Sequence record: MW341595
Source of the DNA: Shigella phage Sfk20
Strand: one strand, 5' to 3'
DNA: 64,000 nt
Within the stretch, counting starts at the first letter, position 1; each line of letters opens with the position of its first letter. Below are positions 4,694 through 62,830 of the stretch, in pieces. The notes beneath the pieces were generated by a model. The model worked only from the letters and a program-made list of their open reading frames with translations, searched no databases and was not told the origin of the DNA. The position numbers and the translations under genes are program-made.

Positions 4694-6871
4694 TTAGGCC
4701 GCAAGGGCCTTCATAGTTTTAGCGATTTGGGAAACTTCATCATCACTTAAAGAGTTGCGATAACCGATGAAGTCGGAAACAATACGGAATTTCTTGGTAA
4801 ACTCAGCAACCATTTTATCACTGTTTTTTGAAGCATTATATGATAGTGTTTCAAAAAGATTAGTTACTGTCCAGATGTCATGACCGATGGTACCTTTTCC
4901 ACCGTTGAAATATATACCCTGCAATGAACTAACCATATTACCAAGGCGAGTATATTCTTCGGAAACTTCATCTACACTGAAGTACTTCATCATAAAATCT
5001 AACTCAGGATACTTGATAATTTTATCAATATATCGTTTAGCTGAACTTGAATAACCTACATACTTATCATAATCTACATCATCAAAAGCATCTACATATA
5101 AATCACGTAGAGTTTCAAAAATACATTGGCACTGACCAAGTTCTTTTACCTTTTTCTGCAAAAGTGGACGAATAACATAAAATTCATTAATGCCAATAAG
5201 ATTAGCCATACGAGTCAAAATACTCGTAGACGGATTACAGAGCGATGTAGTACCATCCATAGAGAAAATATCAGAACGATGCATGTATGCTACATAACCA
5301 GTAATTTCATCTGCTTCTGACGTAAGTGTAAACAGTTCCTCTTTTTCCCAGCGCCCGTCTTTAATTTCAAACTTAAACGCAGTAGCAGCTTTAGGACGAG
5401 GAGCTTTACTTTTAACTGCCTTCGGAATATAACTTTTAACTAAAGCTTCAATTTCTGACAAATAATGAATGTTAACTTCATCACTTTCAAACATTGCCAT
5501 AATATCAGGGAGTAAATCAATCTGCGATTCTACTTCCGGATTAATAAACAAAAGACGCTCATTATGATGAATATTCAAAGTGTTATTAAATTCTTTATCA
5601 TCTAACGCATGCGCTAATCCACGGACAATATTAACACGATTTTTAATATTATCAATAACGATATTAATTTTTGTTGTATTAATACCGAACAGACGATAAC
5701 TTGATGCAACGGCTGAAGTTTCATGACTTTGCTTAATGCGTTTCAGTCGAGGGTCAAGATTTACTTCATACACAACTCCTGCATTACATAGTTTACTATC
5801 AGGTTCAAACATGCTTTGCATCTTCTTATATGACAGATTTTTAGTCGTAAATTTGACTGAATTACTAATCATATAATCTCGAGCAGAATATCCCATCTTC
5901 ATCAATTCACGGTATGTATGACGAGGAGATGTAGATTCTTTAAATCGTTTTACATCTTCATTGAATGCTTTCTCACTAAGCTCTTTAACACGCTCAATAA
6001 TATTTTTACGGGTACGATCATCTAGTGAAAGAGCTTCGCGTGATGGAGCAATATCAAGTGAACCCATTGGAAACTTAATGTAATTCACTTCATTGCGGAT
6101 GCTTAACCAGTTACGGTCTCTAATAACACCATCGATAGGATAAACAATACCACCATAGATAGCATACAATCCACCACGATCTGGCCAGTATCTTTCTGGA
6201 TTTACGCCGTAATAGTCATCAAAATCCGGAAAATAATCAATTTCGCGGTCAAGACCATTAATGATAGCTAAATCTTTGAATGGTCGCATGATATAAGAAA
6301 CTTCATAAGCAAAGTTTCTAAAGTCTTTTTCTTCAACTGGAACTACGATTTCAATACCAGTTTTATCATCTGGACCCATTTCTTTTACAAATGTAGGTTT
6401 AATTTGTGGACCATCGCCATCCATGTAAGCTACATAACCACGAATTTCGCCTTTATGATATGAAGTAATACTAAACGTATCAGTATAGCTAAACGGGGAT
6501 TTAGAACCTAAACCAAATCCGCCAATGAAATCATTAGATTCAGCCTTAGATGAACTAAAGTATGAATTATACAACCCAGGAGAATTATCATCACCTTGAA
6601 TATCAAAATCGCTCATACCTGGACCAAAATCTCGACAAACAAATCGCGGATCTAATCGTCCTGGAACTTGAATGATAAATTTTTCAGGATTTCCATTAAG
6701 AGCATGGGCATCAATCATGTTGGTAATCAATTCACGGACAACTGCGCGAATCTTGTTTGTATACAAGTCAGATGACAGAATTTTAAATACTTTAGGAGAT
6801 GCTGTGATGCTAAATGCTTTTGATTTAGAACCATTACCAAGAATTGTTTCTTTTTCAGTGGTGATAATCAT
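4694..6871 (-). CDS. rIIA: rIIA protein
   Basis: 725 aa, same length as T4 rIIA; N-terminus [27 protein letters not shown]... recognised. Confidence 0.95.
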
Positions 6872-16232: not shown

Positions 16233-16835
16233 TTATAGATTAAATCCTTCAAAATCAAGAGTATAGATAGTGTATGTTGAATACTTTTTATACTCGTATC
16301 TATCCGCAATTCTAAATACGCTTCCAGCTGGTATCATTACTTCTTGTTCATCTGAAACTAATTCCATATTACGATAGCGATGGCTATCTGGAAACTTAAA
16401 ACTTGGACTATATTCTTTACAGCGTAGAGCTTTTATAGCATACTCCTGGAAATTAAACACCATAGGAGCTTTGAATTCAAAAATAACTTGCGTGTTGTAT
16501 TCTAATCCAGAAGCAAAATGTAGAGCTATATTTTTATCATATGAAGCTGATACTACTTTATCAAATGTAATAATATCAATTCCTTGATTTAACACCTGCT
16601 TAGTCTCAACTGGAACACCTCTCCAAAGAGGTTTATCGTTTGGTTCCAAACGAGATTTGATTATTTCATTTAACCAAGAATGATCGTCTGGCTTATTAGT
16701 AATACAATGAATTAAAAGTTCAATTTCGGATAAATTAAATCCTTCAGAAAGTAATTCTTCACGAATAGAAGCACGCACAGATGCATCCATTGATTTGATT
16801 TTAAAATCTTTTAATTGCATTGCTGAATATTTCAT
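16233..16835 (-). CDS. modA: ADP-ribosyltransferase ModA
   Basis: 200 aa, same length and position as T4 ModA; tandem with paralogue ModB. Confidence 0.75.
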   Translation of the reverse strand: MKYSAMQLKDFKIKSMDASVRASIREELLSEGFNLSEIELLIHCITNKPDDHSWLNEIIKSRLEPNDKPLWRGVPVETKQVLNQGIDIITFDKVVSASYDKNIALHFASGLEYNTQVIFEFKAPMVFNFQEYAIKALRCKEYSPSFKFPDSHRYRNMELVSDEQEVMIPAGSVFRIADRYEYKKYSTYTIYTLDFEGFNL

Positions 16836-17455
16836 TCAACTACCTCAATATCATACACTTTAAATGTTCCAAATGAATCGTGTAATTTTTCTTTTGAAAT
16901 AGAAGTTATTTTATACTTTCCAATTGGAATCATCCATTCTTGTTCACGCACAATCATCATTAAGTTATCAGTACGTTCTGAATCTAATCCATCAGTATCT
17001 TCATATGTATACTTAAACTCAGTATTAGGAGAAGAAAGTATAATATCACTGATATGGTCAGAATAATTAAAAGCTTTATCAGTTTTTAAGCGAAATATTA
17101 TTTCAGTGGAATATTCAACATAAGAAAAACCACATGCTGTGTGCAAACTAGTAGTAAATGAATCTACTCTGTTCGTTGAAAACACTTCTCCGACTTGTAA
17201 ATCTTTAATGAGTTCTTTTGTCGATTTTGATATACCACGATATAGCTGATAAGGCGATTTAGTTAAATGCTTTTTAACGATTTTATTCAACTGCCGGTGA
17301 AGAGCTTCATTCTTTTTGGCTTCCATACATTGCCAAAGAACTGACTGTTCAAAGTCAGTAAATTTTTCACAGACCTTTTTATACATATCATATTGAAAAT
17401 CGACACTTTCAGCTTTTATAGATAACTGTTCAACATCTGCAAGATTAATAATCAT
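16832..17455 (-). CDS. modB: ADP-ribosyltransferase ModB
   Basis: 207 aa, same length and position as T4 ModB; YRGIS...EQEWMIP pattern parallels ModA. Confidence 0.75.
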   Translation of the reverse strand: MIINLADVEQLSIKAESVDFQYDMYKKVCEKFTDFEQSVLWQCMEAKKNEALHRQLNKIVKKHLTKSPYQLYRGISKSTKELIKDLQVGEVFSTNRVDSFTTSLHTACGFSYVEYSTEIIFRLKTDKAFNYSDHISDIILSSPNTEFKYTYEDTDGLDSERTDNLMMIVREQEWMIPIGKYKITSISKEKLHDSFGTFKVYDIEVVE

Positions 17456-58857: not shown

Positions 58858-59070
58858 TCATTTTTGTCCTGTATTTACTTTATGCCGATGCACGGCCTTA
58901 ACTTTATCAAGGTATTTTTCAAAATTTCGCAATCTAGTATAGTCTGCCGGAGATTGGTTGAGTGATACTTCTCGACGCAAAGCTGAAATGATATTTCCAA
59001 CTTCCCTACGAATTTCATCTAATTGAAGAACAGTAAGATTGCGAAGTTGCTTTTCAGTTAATTGTAGCAT
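58858..59070 (-). CDS. hypothetical protein (rI.1 position), 70 aa
   Basis: ORF track; AAGGGG SD. Confidence 0.5.
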
Positions 59071-59095
59071 ATATACCCCTTTAGTTAGATAAACC

Positions 59096-59103
59096 TATTT
59101 ATA
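59096..59103 (-). promoter_or_regulatory. late promoter TATAAATA upstream of rI.1/rI
   Basis: Exact TATAAATA on minus strand about 26 nt upstream of the rI.1 ATG. Confidence 0.6.
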
Positions 59104-59112
59104 ACTTTTGCA

Positions 59113-59694
59113 CTAACCGAGCTTTTTAGTTAATTCATTCCAATGTTTTCTACACAAAGAAACATAAATTTCATCACCAATACAGATTTGATTACCTTCT
59201 TTAACTGGTGTTCCATCTTCCATTAATCGAGCTGTCATAATCGCTTTTTTACCACAATGACAAACTGCCTTTAGTTCAATAAGTTTATCTGCAATCGCCA
59301 AAAGTTCTTTAGAACCTTCAAATAATTTTCCAGCGAAATCAGTCCTTAGCCCATAAGCCATAACAGGAACATTATATGTATCAACAATTCGGCTTAATTG
59401 ATGCACCTGTTCAGTTTTTAAAAACTGGGCTTCATCTACAAATACGCAATGAATATCTTTTTGTGCTTCAGCCCATTTATAGAACTCAAAAATATCCATA
59501 TCATCCGTAATAATATTCGCTTCCTGTTTAATTCCAATGCGAGAAACGACTTCACAGACAGAATCGCGAGTATCAATAGCAGGCTTAAGAACTAATACAC
59601 CCATTCCACGTTCTTTATAATTATGTGCAGCAGTCAAAAGAGAAGCAGATTTTCCAGCATTCATTGCTGCATAAGTAAAAATTAAACTCGCCAT
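59113..59694 (-). CDS. tk: thymidine kinase
   Basis: 193 aa as T4 Tk; P-loop AAMNAGKS and C-terminal zinc cysteines. Confidence 0.95.
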   Translation of the reverse strand: MASLIFTYAAMNAGKSASLLTAAHNYKERGMGVLVLKPAIDTRDSVCEVVSRIGIKQEANIITDDMDIFEFYKWAEAQKDIHCVFVDEAQFLKTEQVHQLSRIVDTYNVPVMAYGLRTDFAGKLFEGSKELLAIADKLIELKAVCHCGKKAIMTARLMEDGTPVKEGNQICIGDEIYVSLCRKHWNELTKKLG

Positions 59695-59695
59695 C

Positions 59696-59884
59696 TTAGT
59701 CCTTAGTTAAATTTTCTAAATATGTTTCTAAATCATTTTCAGCTTTATCGATAGATTTTACTAATTCGTAATATGTTTCGGCATCTCCATAATCTGAAGC
59801 CGCTTCAAAAGATAAATCTCGTTCTAAACTAATAATTTCACCAACTAAAAATAATATTTCGTTCTTTTGTTCGCGGGTAATCAT
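59696..59884 (-). CDS. hypothetical acidic protein, 62 aa
   Basis: ORF track. Confidence 0.45.
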   Translation of the reverse strand: MITREQKNEILFLVGEIISLERDLSFEAASDYGDAETYYELVKSIDKAENDLETYLENLTKD

Positions 59885-60066
59885 AAGGAATTTATATAAT
59901 CAATAAGTTCTTGTTCTTTATCGTCGAAATCTTTACACAGTTCTTCGTATTCGTCAGTATTAAAAGGACCGCATTCATCACAAACTTTTTCCAATTCACT
60001 GTTTTTATCCATAACTTCGTGAATAAGAGAAAACAGCTTGTCTTTTTGTTCTTTACTTAGGCTCAT
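59881..60066 (-). CDS. hypothetical acidic protein, 61 aa
   Basis: ORF track. Confidence 0.45.
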   Translation of the reverse strand: MSLSKEQKDKLFSLIHEVMDKNSELEKVCDECGPFNTDEYEELCKDFDDKEQELIDYINSL

Positions 60067-60236
60067 ATATTAATTTCCAAAAGTTTTAAAATAATTCGCT
60101 TTTGCTTAAATATTTCCATAGTTAAATGATCAGTATCTTTTTGGCCAATTCCAATTGCAAAACCTTTATTAACAGCTAGTTCAATTAAATTATCAAGTTC
60201 ACGTAACACTTCATATTGTAGCTCAGAACTATTCAT
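60063..60236 (-). CDS. small hypothetical protein, 57 aa
   Basis: Hand-translated MNSSELQYEVLRELDNLIELAVNKGFAIGIGQKDTDHLTMEIFKQKRIILKLLEINI. Confidence 0.3.
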   Translation of the reverse strand: MNSSELQYEVLRELDNLIELAVNKGFAIGIGQKDTDHLTMEIFKQKRIILKLLEINI

Positions 60237-60460
60237 TTCGGTTTACCTTCTTTAACGAAATCAGGATAAGGATAAAATCCTGAATAAAATCCTTCACCTT
60301 TATGATTGATGCATCCTTTATTAGAACAATAGCACCAATAATCGAAATCACAAGCCATTTCATCATTACATAAAGCAAAAACAACCGGCCATTCACACTT
60401 TTCGCAGTGGGCATTTTTAAGAATACTAGTTTGACTCATAACCATGTAACCTTTAAGCAA
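60233..60460 (-). CDS. Cys-rich small protein, 75 aa
   Basis: ORF track; 8 cysteines (CEKCE, CNDEMAC, CYC, GC). Confidence 0.45.
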   Translation of the reverse strand: MLKGYMVMSQTSILKNAHCEKCEWPVVFALCNDEMACDFDYWCYCSNKGCINHKGEGFYSGFYPYPDFVKEGKPK

Positions 60461-60648
60461 TATTCTTCTACATGTTGTTTACGACCTTTTTTATCAATAA
60501 AGGTATATTCAACGAATGTTCCAATATAATCTTTATCTACATCATGTGGACTATTAATTGGGCATTTAGTACGGCAAATGCGTTCCCATTGACGAATAAT
60601 TTCCACTTTGTTTTTAGGATCAAACGGATGCGGGTAATGTACTTTCAT
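60436..60648 (-). CDS. hypothetical protein, 70 aa
   Basis: ORF track. Confidence 0.45.
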   Translation of the reverse strand: MKVHYPHPFDPKNKVEIIRQWERICRTKCPINSPHDVDKDYIGTFVEYTFIDKKGRKQHVEEYCLKVTWL

Positions 60649-61099
60649 AATCCACCACTATTAAATCAATATCAGGAGTAAACATGTCGATTAATTTAGA
60701 AACCTTATCCCAATCGCCGCCAGCAATACCACAACCGATGCGTGGAATGTAAATTACTGGTTTAAACAAAAGGGTTTCTGCCTGTAGATTTAATTCTATC
60801 ATACAGTTTACTAAAGCACCATAATCAAGATTAGGACCCGGTTCGTATTGCGTATACAAATTATAGCACATACTAAATCCTGTAGGATTATGTTTAAAAA
60901 CAATAGACATATCGCCTAATTTATCACGAGAACCGTACTCGGTAGTGGTTTTATCTATTTCTAAAATTTTGGGATAGGCTCTTGCTAATTGACCTGCTAC
61001 GCCAGAGCCCATTGTGTGGAAGCAATTACACCCGTGCGCAATAATATTACCTTGAAGAAATAGGGCGACAATATCGCCCTTGATATATTTTACAATCAT
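60620..61099 (-). CDS. macro-domain-like protein (predicted ADP-ribose binding/processing), 159 aa
   Basis: N-terminal GDI...IAHGCNC...GSGVAG and later GCGIAGGDW resemble the macro-domain ligand-binding loops. Confidence 0.5.
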   Translation of the reverse strand: MIVKYIKGDIVALFLQGNIIAHGCNCFHTMGSGVAGQLARAYPKILEIDKTTTEYGSRDKLGDMSIVFKHNPTGFSMCYNLYTQYEPGPNLDYGALVNCMIELNLQAETLLFKPVIYIPRIGCGIAGGDWDKVSKLIDMFTPDIDLIVVDYESTLPASV

Positions 61100-61443
61100 C
61101 TAGTACTCAATCCTCGATTATAAGAATCTACTAAACGGTCAACCATTGAATGACAAGCGGCTTTATCTTTCTCCTCCGCAACTGAACATTCTAAGGTATT
61201 CCACTTTTTAGCATATCGTTTTAACAATGTATCATTTTTGTATCTGCTTGATTTATCTCTTTCTCCGTCTTTATATGCATATATTAATTTCTGTGCAAAT
61301 TCAGCTTGGCATGCTTTATTTTTCCCGCAATAATCTGCGGCAGTACGGTTTACATACTCTCTAATTTCAGTATATGATGTATCTGCTGATGCAGAAGCAG
61401 AAAATGAAATTAATCCTATACATAAAACCAAAATTTTAGTCAT
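61096..61443 (-). CDS. secreted/periplasmic protein, 115 aa
   Basis: ORF track; N-terminal signal peptide MTKILVLCIGLISFSASASA. Confidence 0.5.
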   Translation of the reverse strand: MTKILVLCIGLISFSASASADTSYTEIREYVNRTAADYCGKNKACQAEFAQKLIYAYKDGERDKSSRYKNDTLLKRYAKKWNTLECSVAEEKDKAACHSMVDRLVDSYNRGLSTR

Positions 61444-61981
61444 TTACTATTTCCAAAAGTTTATTATTTTTAAGGTAATTAGCCTTTTCTAGGACTTCAG
61501 AAGCATATTTAGAACCTGCTTTAACGTTCCATCCCGAATTATAAGAGGATATCGCCTTTCTTATATCGCCCTTATGTATATTTAACCAATAAGAAAGTTC
61601 AATGTACGCCCAGGAAGCTGAATTGGATCGTTTATTCAACATTCTTTTTATTTCAGCATCGGTCATATTATAACCAAGTTCCTTAACTCTCGCTCGCATA
61701 GTCGGCAAATAATTTTGGAACATTCCATAGGCATGATGCTTTGGTTTAGATTTTAAATTAACTCCGGCAGAGCTTTCTTGCCATAAAATAGCAGCCATTA
61801 TATGACCCAATCCGCTCTTGTGGATATTTTTGTGTGTTTTATATTTTCCATCCTTAGAAAATTGTTCCCCGAATTGATATGCGTAGCGCATGTTATCGAG
61901 TTGGACATTACTGAAAGTATGCTCGGAGCTATGTGCCATCATTGAAATGGCCAATAGACCAGCGAGTAGTGCTTTTCTCAT
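61436..61981 (-). CDS. periplasmic lytic transglycosylase-like protein, 181 aa
   Basis: Signal peptide plus ILWQESS...YGMFQ resembling the SLT catalytic E-S / G-MQ motif. Confidence 0.5.
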   Translation of the reverse strand: MRKALLAGLLAISMMAHSSEHTFSNVQLDNMRYAYQFGEQFSKDGKYKTHKNIHKSGLGHIMAAILWQESSAGVNLKSKPKHHAYGMFQNYLPTMRARVKELGYNMTDAEIKRMLNKRSNSASWAYIELSYWLNIHKGDIRKAISSYNSGWNVKAGSKYASEVLEKANYLKNNKLLEIVND

Positions 61982-61988
61982 GCTTACC

Positions 61989-62450
61989 TCATTGAGTTTT
62001 AATTACTGCTTTAGAAGCCTTTCCTGGTAAACGACGACTGTTGATAATTGCCATCCTACATTGAAGCGACGGGTCTTTGAACTTCGCATTAGGTTTACAA
62101 ACTGTAAATCCAAGCCAAAGATTTCCATCTGTGATTTCTAAACGTCCAGGGCGATATTCAACCCCATCAATAAAATCCTCGTCAATGTCAGGACGCGGAG
62201 GCATACTCAGGAATTCATTAACTTCTAAAACATGGTCTTTTATTTTGTGGAATAATTCAAAAACATATGTCTCATCAATCTCTCGTTGAATTGCACGATC
62301 AAGAAGATGCTGAGAATATTTTAGATGAAACGATGAGACCCCTGCTGCTTTTGATGCCTCACGAATCTCATTGTTAATTTGACGAAACTCCGACTCAAAG
62401 TGACGACGAAGCTTATTTCGACGGATAAAAACTTCTGTGTTGATAGTCAT
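61989..62450 (-). CDS. regB: RegB site-specific endoribonuclease
   Basis: 153 aa as T4 RegB; position downstream of the tk block. Confidence 0.8.
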   Translation of the reverse strand: MTINTEVFIRRNKLRRHFESEFRQINNEIREASKAAGVSSFHLKYSQHLLDRAIQREIDETYVFELFHKIKDHVLEVNEFLSMPPRPDIDEDFIDGVEYRPGRLEITDGNLWLGFTVCKPNAKFKDPSLQCRMAIINSRRLPGKASKAVIKTQ

Positions 62451-62477
62451 GTTATTCTCCTCTTAACTGATAGAAAA

Positions 62478-62506
62478 ATTATACCACAGTCAAGAGGAAA
62501 AGTAAA
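62478..62506 (-). promoter_or_regulatory. early (sigma70-type) promoter upstream of regB
   Basis: Reverse complement TTTACT-17 nt-TATAAT. Confidence 0.6.
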
Positions 62507-62509
62507 CAG

Positions 62510-62830
62510 TTATTCTTTAAATCTAATCAATTTATTCATAGACTTTGAAACTTCTGCACGGACCTCATGTAGGTTTTTAAGCTGTTCAAGACGTTGCTCA
62601 TAATAAGCAATTTCATCTTCTTCAAGACAGTCCTGTGAATCTTCTTTAAGATAACGCGCATAGTCCTGGAAAGCTTTACGGACTACTTCCTGGAAGTCAT
62701 CAAGACTTTGAATTTTCTTAGGAGCAACAGATACACGACGAGGGGCAGTATAATACTCATAACCAAACCCTGCGCTTAATTGAGCCATTAATATTTTTCC
62801 TCTGGTTGGAACACAGCACGACAAGCCCAC
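62510..62830 (-). CDS. hypothetical protein (vs.3 position), 106 aa
   Basis: ORF track. Confidence 0.45.

Follow-up and report, generated by a model that had tools for sequence, protein, structure and literature searches.

Host DarTG2 ADP-ribosylates thymidine in DNA (bioRxiv 10.1101/2025.11.20.689424). T4 without both adfA and adfN stays resistant to DarTG2, and a further factor was predicted (Johannesman et al., PMC11825919). In a preprint of November 2025, transposon mutants of T4 were screened on a host that expresses DarTG2, and tk.4 was the single significant gene. A clean T4 tk.4 knockout was sensitised to DarTG2; T4 depends on tk.4 only where this system is present. The tk.4 product is structurally similar to the macro domain of M. 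tuberculosis DarG, and the gene was named adfM (anti-DarT factor Macrodomain), whereas enzymatic removal of ADP-ribose from DNA is described there only as what 'seems likely' (bioRxiv 10.1101/2025.11.20.689424). A second phage protein, gp104 of PhiKZ, strips DarT2-made ADP-ribose from a TNTC oligonucleotide in vitro and was independently named 'AdfM' in a 2026 Cell Reports paper which does not mention T4 tk.4 (PMC13309987). The evidence is split between the two proteins of this name, in vitro work being available only for gp104 and T4 genetics only for Tk.4. The A1pp (macro) domain of tk.4 orthologues had already been reported in 2006 (PMC1524935).

Several cellular macro domains are also described. 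SCO6735 of Streptomyces coelicolor (PDB 5E3B), which has a glutamine (Gln85), strips DarT2-made ADP-ribose from DNA in vitro and reverses the thymidine ADP-ribosylation of DarT more efficiently than DarG or TARG1. According to the mechanism proposed by its authors, water attacks and the glutamine positions the substrate (PMC9411070). Gln85 is essential, and activity is lost in the mutants Q85A, N27S and G128E (PMC9411070), as it is in N23A of PhiKZ gp104 (PMC13309987). The catalytic residue of DarG from M. tuberculosis (5M3I) and T. aquaticus (5M31/5M3E) is Lys80 of a PTK motif, and human TARG1/OARD1 has a Lys84/Asp125 dyad. Yeast Poa1p is an ADP-ribose-1''-phosphate phosphatase; Poa1p and TARG1 are eukaryotic and unrelated to phage defence.

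The window analysed here, a stretch of 64,000 nt from Shigella phage Sfk20 (MW341595), is a T4-like (Tequatrovirus) genome. An ORF on its minus strand (60620..61099) is translated into a 159-aa protein with a single macro domain, which starts with MIVKYIKGDIVALFLQGNIIAHGCNCFHTMGSGVAGQ and contains the internal sequence PRIGCGIAGGDW. In a sequence search, the 2-kb region around this ORF showed 97-98% identity to many Escherichia and Shigella phages. Compared with the T4 annotation, the gene order of the window is tk-tk.1-tk.2-(two extra ORFs)-tk.3-tk.4-vs-vs.1-regB. In the T4 reference (NC_000866), the gene flanked by tk.3 and vs is tk.4 (NP_049723), and since the ORF of the window lies between the same two genes, it is the orthologue of T4 tk.4. 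The two proteins (155 aa in T4) are 57-58% identical end to end over 155 aa (E = 8e-71), share the family-invariant residues and fall in the same PHROG 335 (4e-71 for the window protein). They differ in the C-terminus, which is four residues longer in the window.

T4 NP_049723 is annotated as 'phosphatase; contains A1pp phosphatase motif', a label of the A1pp kind being in place since the 2000s, and a protein 100% identical to that of the window, a protein of phage Ec_MI-02 carries the GenBank label 'macro domain-containing protein'. Thus, the recognition of a macro domain in this ORF is correct but not new, as it rediscovers a known gene annotated in hundreds of T4-like genomes. In another GenBank record of T4 (OL964745.1), the tk.4 region matches in two pieces, with two 'macro domain-containing protein' CDSs. 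This suggests that tk.4 is frameshifted or split in that stock.

The preliminary description of this DNA had pointed out the resemblance of the 159-aa ORF to macro domains and had proposed profile searches and structure prediction as a check of the fold. Both bear out the resemblance. The match to the Pfam Macro profile (PF01661) covers positions 2-117 of its 118 and scores 33.8 bits, with the gathering threshold at 22 (E = 3.7e-8). When the PDB was searched with the sequence, macro domains alone reached significant E-values, namely BT1257 (9e-11), Poa1p, SCO6735, M. tuberculosis DarG (2.5e-5) and TARG1. With a family profile of 55 sequences, the E-values were 6e-20 for BT1257, 1.7e-16 for TARG1, 2.3e-15 for SCO6735, 4e-14 for Poa1p and 1.3e-11 for DarG. 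The AlphaFold2 model based on the 55-sequence alignment is confident (pLDDT 94.1, pTM 0.89) and has the three-layer alpha/beta/alpha macro fold. Up to 122 homologues retain the asparagine and the two glycine-rich loops (N25, G31-S-G33-V-A35 and G122-C-G124-I-A-G-G128), which align with those of DarG, TARG1 and BT1257. The tk.4 product of the window is a genuine macro-domain protein, and in every testable respect it agrees with the macro superfamily and the tk.4/adfM orthologous group. Judged by its sequence, it belongs to the ALC1/TARG1/DarG-like class and consists of a macro domain alone.

Conservation was followed in 122 family sequences aligned with MAFFT: 120 homologues from the database, T4 Tk.4 and the protein of the window. 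The HGCNC motif (residues 22-26; 61022..61036, minus strand) includes the conserved macro-domain asparagine, N25. All 120 family sequences covering these columns have H22, G23, N25 and C26. In hhalign, N25 is on the asparagine of the DarG 'VNxVG' motif and is the equivalent of DarG N22. H22 corresponds to the histidine of the H-x-C-N-C motif (H23 in Poa1p), where 'IHSCNC' of Poa1p aligns. The predicted first glycine-rich ADP-ribose-binding loop, MGSGVAG (residues 30-36; 60992..61012, minus strand), has G33 and A35 in 122 of the 122 members, in common with DarG and TARG1. The predicted diphosphate-binding loop (residues 119-130; 60710..60745, minus strand) is nearly identical to PRIGCGLAGGTW of SCO6735 and PRIGCGLAGGKW of BT1257. 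Its G122 and G124 are present in 120/120 covering sequences and W130 in 121/121. The respective loop of T4 is PRIGAGIGKGNW, with GAGIGKGNW versus GCGIAGGDW in the window.

The NLYTQ motif (residues 80-84; 60848..60862, minus strand) has Q84 at the position of the catalytic lysine, that is, K80 of DarG and K84 of TARG1. When the macro domains of M. tuberculosis and T. aquaticus DarG were compared with the family profile (hhalign), N80-L-Y-T-Q84 paired with N-F-P-T-K80. In the hmmsearch alignment, NLYTQ pairs with L-I-T-K84 of TARG1, whose Asp125 is replaced by Ala126. This column holds glutamine in 122/122 family sequences and in BT1257, and lysine in both DarG proteins, TARG1 and PhiKZ gp104. 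As the glutamine is found in the whole family, Tk.4 proteins are, on this alignment, without the lysine on which catalysis by DarG and TARG1 depends. Q84 and N25 were matched to Gln85 and N27 of SCO6735 indirectly, through BT1257, DarG, TARG1 and the alignment described in PMC9411070. Four other residues, D49 (60953-60955), Y82, C26 and G23, are invariant where covered (120-122 of the 122 family sequences), but DarG, TARG1 and BT1257 do not have them in these columns.

Among the characterised proteins, SCO6735 and Bacteroides BT1257 (PDB 2AFC/2FG1) are ~25-29% identical to the window protein. The equivalents of SCO6735 N27, Q85 and G128 are conserved as N25, Q84 and G124, and the combination typical of ALC1-like proteins of the glutamine type (glutamine at the lysine position, the conserved asparagine and a GCG[IL]AGG loop) is found as Q84, N25 and GCGIAGG. 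On the other hand, the longer, positively charged mobile loop that follows the glutamine in SCO6735 and BT1257 is absent from the Tk.4 family. In BT1257 it amounts to an insertion of six residues relative to the family profile, whereas the segment of the window protein, YEPGPNLDY, has the length of TARG1. The Tk.4 family is further distinguished from the two by its own invariant residues (D49, Y82 and C26), by being phage-encoded and by its use in counter-defence.

DarG differs from the window protein in its lysine (Gln84 here), in its C-terminal DarT-binding domain and in the adjacent darT gene; the neighbours here are vs and tk.3. The NCBIfam DarG model (NF048014) gives 28.9 bits against a cut-off of 250, and only the macro part aligns (model positions 2-142 of 338). 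An orphaned DarG antitoxin was rejected because of the missing catalytic lysine, DarT-binding domain and darT neighbour and because the score is far below the cut-off. Like Tk.4, PhiKZ gp104 is encoded by a phage, consists of a macro domain alone and counters DarTG2. Still, gp104 is of the DarG-like lysine type (FPTKDNW; VNVVGVMG) and Tk.4 of the glutamine type (NLYTQ; HGCNC). By these motifs, the two 'AdfM' proteins are non-orthologous members of different subfamilies, which suggests that they were acquired independently. A homologue of Pelagimonas phthalicica with 40% identity (5001-5459 of the stretch examined) is a gene on its own in a neighbourhood of unrelated housekeeping genes that lacks darT. 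This single example hints at stand-alone cellular macro domains of the glutamine type, and not an orphaned DarG, as the origin of the phage family.

The tk.4 gene lies between thymidine kinase (tk, 59113-59694) and regB (61989-62450; Pfam REGB_T4), as was initially described. The additional statement that two signal-peptide proteins flank it is inexact. The two proteins whose N-termini resemble signal peptides, vs (61096-61443) and vs.1 (61436-61981, with an SLT domain), are both encoded upstream of tk.4, and the downstream neighbour tk.3 (60436-60648; DUF7202) has an N-terminus that does not look like a signal peptide. Between tk.2 and tk.3, an insertion of ~370 bp relative to T4 (60066-60435) carries two small minus-strand ORFs. 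The one at 60063-60236 encodes 57 aa (PHROG 3452). The other, at 60233-60460, matches Pfam PF23895 'Phage zinc binding domain' and PHROG 2306; the ATG at its residue 8 is probably the real start codon.

Direct reading of the sequence shows that the stop codon of vs and the start codon of tk.4 overlap in an ATGA (61096..61099, minus strand), which suggests that tk.4 may be co-transcribed and translationally coupled with vs. At its 3′ end, tk.4 overlaps tk.3 by 29 nt (4 nt in T4). A consensus scan found no convincing promoter directly upstream of tk.4, and promoter-like sites in the region are fewer in total than expected from shuffled sequence. Of the well-matching sites on the coding strand, the one nearest to tk.4 is located upstream of regB (62478..62506, minus strand); it is a sigma-70-like candidate from the consensus scan only (TTTACT-17-TATAAT with TG). 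It is weak evidence for a possible start of a regB-vs.1-vs-tk.4 transcript, and from such a transcription unit tk.4 would most likely be expressed. In M9-glucose, also the medium of the DarTG2 assays, vs is the most depleted T4 gene (HIDEN-SEQ preprint, bioRxiv 10.1101/2025.11.20.689424), and vs and tk.4 may influence each other through polarity or coupling. Within codons 7-13 of tk.4 (61062-61080, minus strand), an 8-bp GC-rich hairpin, AGGGCGATATTGTCGCCCT, is followed by a T-rich tail. The stretch that holds it has ~98% identity to T4; directly 3′ of the hairpin, this identity collapses. The hairpin may be due to chance, or it may serve as a weak terminator or form a structure in the RNA.

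The divergence from T4 is confined to a cassette of approximately 60600..61050. In sliding windows of the MAFFT alignment with NC_000866, identity falls there from 97-100% to ~45-75% and returns to 59/60 on the vs side. The flanks (59000-60060 and 61060-62560) are 97-100% identical to T4 at the DNA level, and the first 15 codons of tk.4 are still T4-like. By gene, tk.4 shows 57% aa and 65% nt identity to T4, a level at which synonymous sites are saturated, and the ten neighbouring genes compared show 87-100% aa identity (rI.-1 100%, rI 96%, rI.1 100%, tk 99%, tk.1 94%, tk.2 87%, tk.3 93%, vs 100%, vs.1 99% and regB 99%). A tblastn census of 50,697 phage records found the window-type allele (at least 90% identity) in 312 records, the T4-type allele (at least 90%) in 224 and a third type, 80-90% identical to T4, in 159. 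Hence, there are at least three common allele classes among T4-like phages. Homologues that are more distant are present in ~2,700 records, spread over many groups of myoviruses. Replacement as a cassette would suit a locus with an accessory or anti-defence role.

Given the genetics of the T4 orthologue, we consider it likely that the window protein is the tk.4/adfM anti-DarTG2 macro domain, which removes DarT2-added ADP-ribose from thymidine in phage DNA. By analogy with its characterised relatives, the window allele would have the same activity and mechanism. Host DarT2 would ADP-ribosylate thymidines in single-stranded phage DNA and block replication. Tk.4 would bind the ADP-ribose through its two glycine-rich loops, MGSGVAG and GCGIAGG, and hydrolyse the N-glycosidic bond between ribose and thymine, so that unmodified DNA is restored and ADP-ribose released. 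Catalysis, in which no lysine would participate, is probably that of SCO6735 and not that of DarG: Gln84, positioned by Asn25, would orient the distal ribose for the attack of a water molecule. Tk.4 would thus probably be like the DarG macro domain in outcome but without its chemistry.

Several points stand against the anti-DarTG2 role. The allele is only 57% identical to the T4 protein that was tested, the catalytic lysine required by DarG is missing, the DarG model score is far under its cut-off, and the extended mobile loop, to which the SCO6735 authors tied high activity on DNA, is absent. However, SCO6735 is active with the same glutamine, so the missing lysine is no argument against a hydrolase activity of Tk.4. 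No usable DarTG2 sensitivity data were found in the literature for phages with the window-type allele (BASEL collection).

The preliminary description had instead connected the macro domain with the phage's own ModA and ModB, which are encoded where it placed them (16233-17455). In detail, the ORFs at 16233-16835 and 16832-17455 both match PHROG 832, 'RNA polymerase ADP-ribosylase', which fits ModA/ModB. With these writers in the same genome, the macro domain could erase or tune the marks of Alt, ModA and ModB on RNA polymerase, ribosomal and other host proteins, and the RNAylation of ModB; writers and erasers often co-occur in ADP-ribosylation systems (PMC9503650). Nevertheless, this role is very improbable. 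The modA/modB genes are not adjacent to tk.4 but ~44 kb away, and the sole reported condition-specific phenotype of T4 tk.4 is DarTG2 sensitivity. Alt, ModA and ModB make arginine-linked ADP-ribose, and we know of no cleavage of this linkage by SCO6735, DarG or TARG1. The linkages cleaved by the nearest characterised relatives are to thymidine or Glu/Asp (PMC9411070). A functional link of tk.4 with ModA/ModB was rejected, as they share only their occurrence in one genome. The general idea of a reversal of ADP-ribosylation survives within the conflict with host defence, where the T4 genetics point to DarTG2, and the partner is therefore host DarT2 and not the phage enzymes. Substrates of low molecular weight are unlikely too. 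The 'A1pp phosphatase' annotation and the similarity to Poa1p would argue for a Poa1p-like ADP-ribose-1''-phosphate phosphatase, for an enzyme that deacetylates O-acetyl-ADP-ribose, or for a protein that degrades or soaks up immune signals derived from ADP-ribose (e.g., those of Thoeris). Yet, this label comes from domain naming and not from an assay, the NCBIfam deacetylase model scores far below its cut-off (16.5 vs 291 bits), and the specific DarTG2 phenotype of the T4 genetics would be left unaccounted for. To our knowledge, DarTG2 does not use a soluble ADP-ribose signal. Nothing was found in support of the proposal, made at the outset, that signals derived from ADP-ribose and used by host defence are degraded.

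The replacement of the catalytic lysine by Q84, and of TARG1 D125 by A126, could also mean that Tk.4 only reads or binds ADP-ribose. ALC1 is a known binding module. It also has glutamine at the Q84 position (PMC9411070), although the same Gln and Asn arrangement makes SCO6735 a highly active hydrolase (PMC9411070). Moreover, a stoichiometric binder is not expected to rescue the replication of DNA with covalent adducts, and we regard a non-catalytic reader as highly unlikely. The cassette raises a different question, as its replacement is not accounted for by the anti-DarTG2 role: a hydrolase whose substrate is the modified DNA should have no need of co-evolution with the toxin. Tk.4 could be a broader nucleic-acid de-ADP-ribosylase whose allele classes have different targets (e.g., uridine-linked ADP-ribosylation of RNA or other ADP-ribosylating toxins), with the window allele not equivalent to that of T4. 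The 57% aa identity between flanks of 97-100% DNA identity, the number of common allele classes and the difference of the diphosphate loops speak for it. A paper of 2026 reportedly describes a reversible uracil ADP-ribosylation of RNA and mentions SCO6735 (PMC13036486). Against it, both alleles carry all family-invariant residues, and mosaic cassettes are common in T4-like genomes without change of function. The mRNA ADP-ribosyltransferase system CmdTAC still restricts the T-even phages, all carriers of tk.4 (PMC11618068), so that at least the T4 allele does not counter it. We consider allele-specific targets of this kind doubtful. There is a similarly small chance that the cassette reflects a functional diversification of the glutamine-type macro domain, either in substrate range (e.g., ADP-ribose linked to RNA or to other bases) or as an escape from a host factor that senses or inhibits AdfM; the allele that would differ from that of T4 is the window type with its SCO6735-like GCGIAGG loop.

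With the anti-DarTG2 macro domain as the preferred reading, the T4 orthologue of this gene now has a genetic function as a DarTG2 counter, and the locus has little discovery value. The additions of the present analysis are minor, namely the invariant glutamine, as in SCO6735 and in place of the lysine of DarG and TARG1, and the sharply bounded divergent cassette. The two phage 'AdfM' proteins represent mechanistically different macro-domain subfamilies, the glutamine type in T4 Tk.4 and the lysine type in PhiKZ gp104, so that catalytic mutants of Tk.4 should target Gln84 and Asn25 and not a lysine. Within T4-like genomes that are otherwise nearly identical, tk.4 is an exchangeable allelic cassette, which fits an anti-defence role. 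If the cassette does reflect functional diversification, the adfM alleles would be an arms-race locus and not interchangeable copies.
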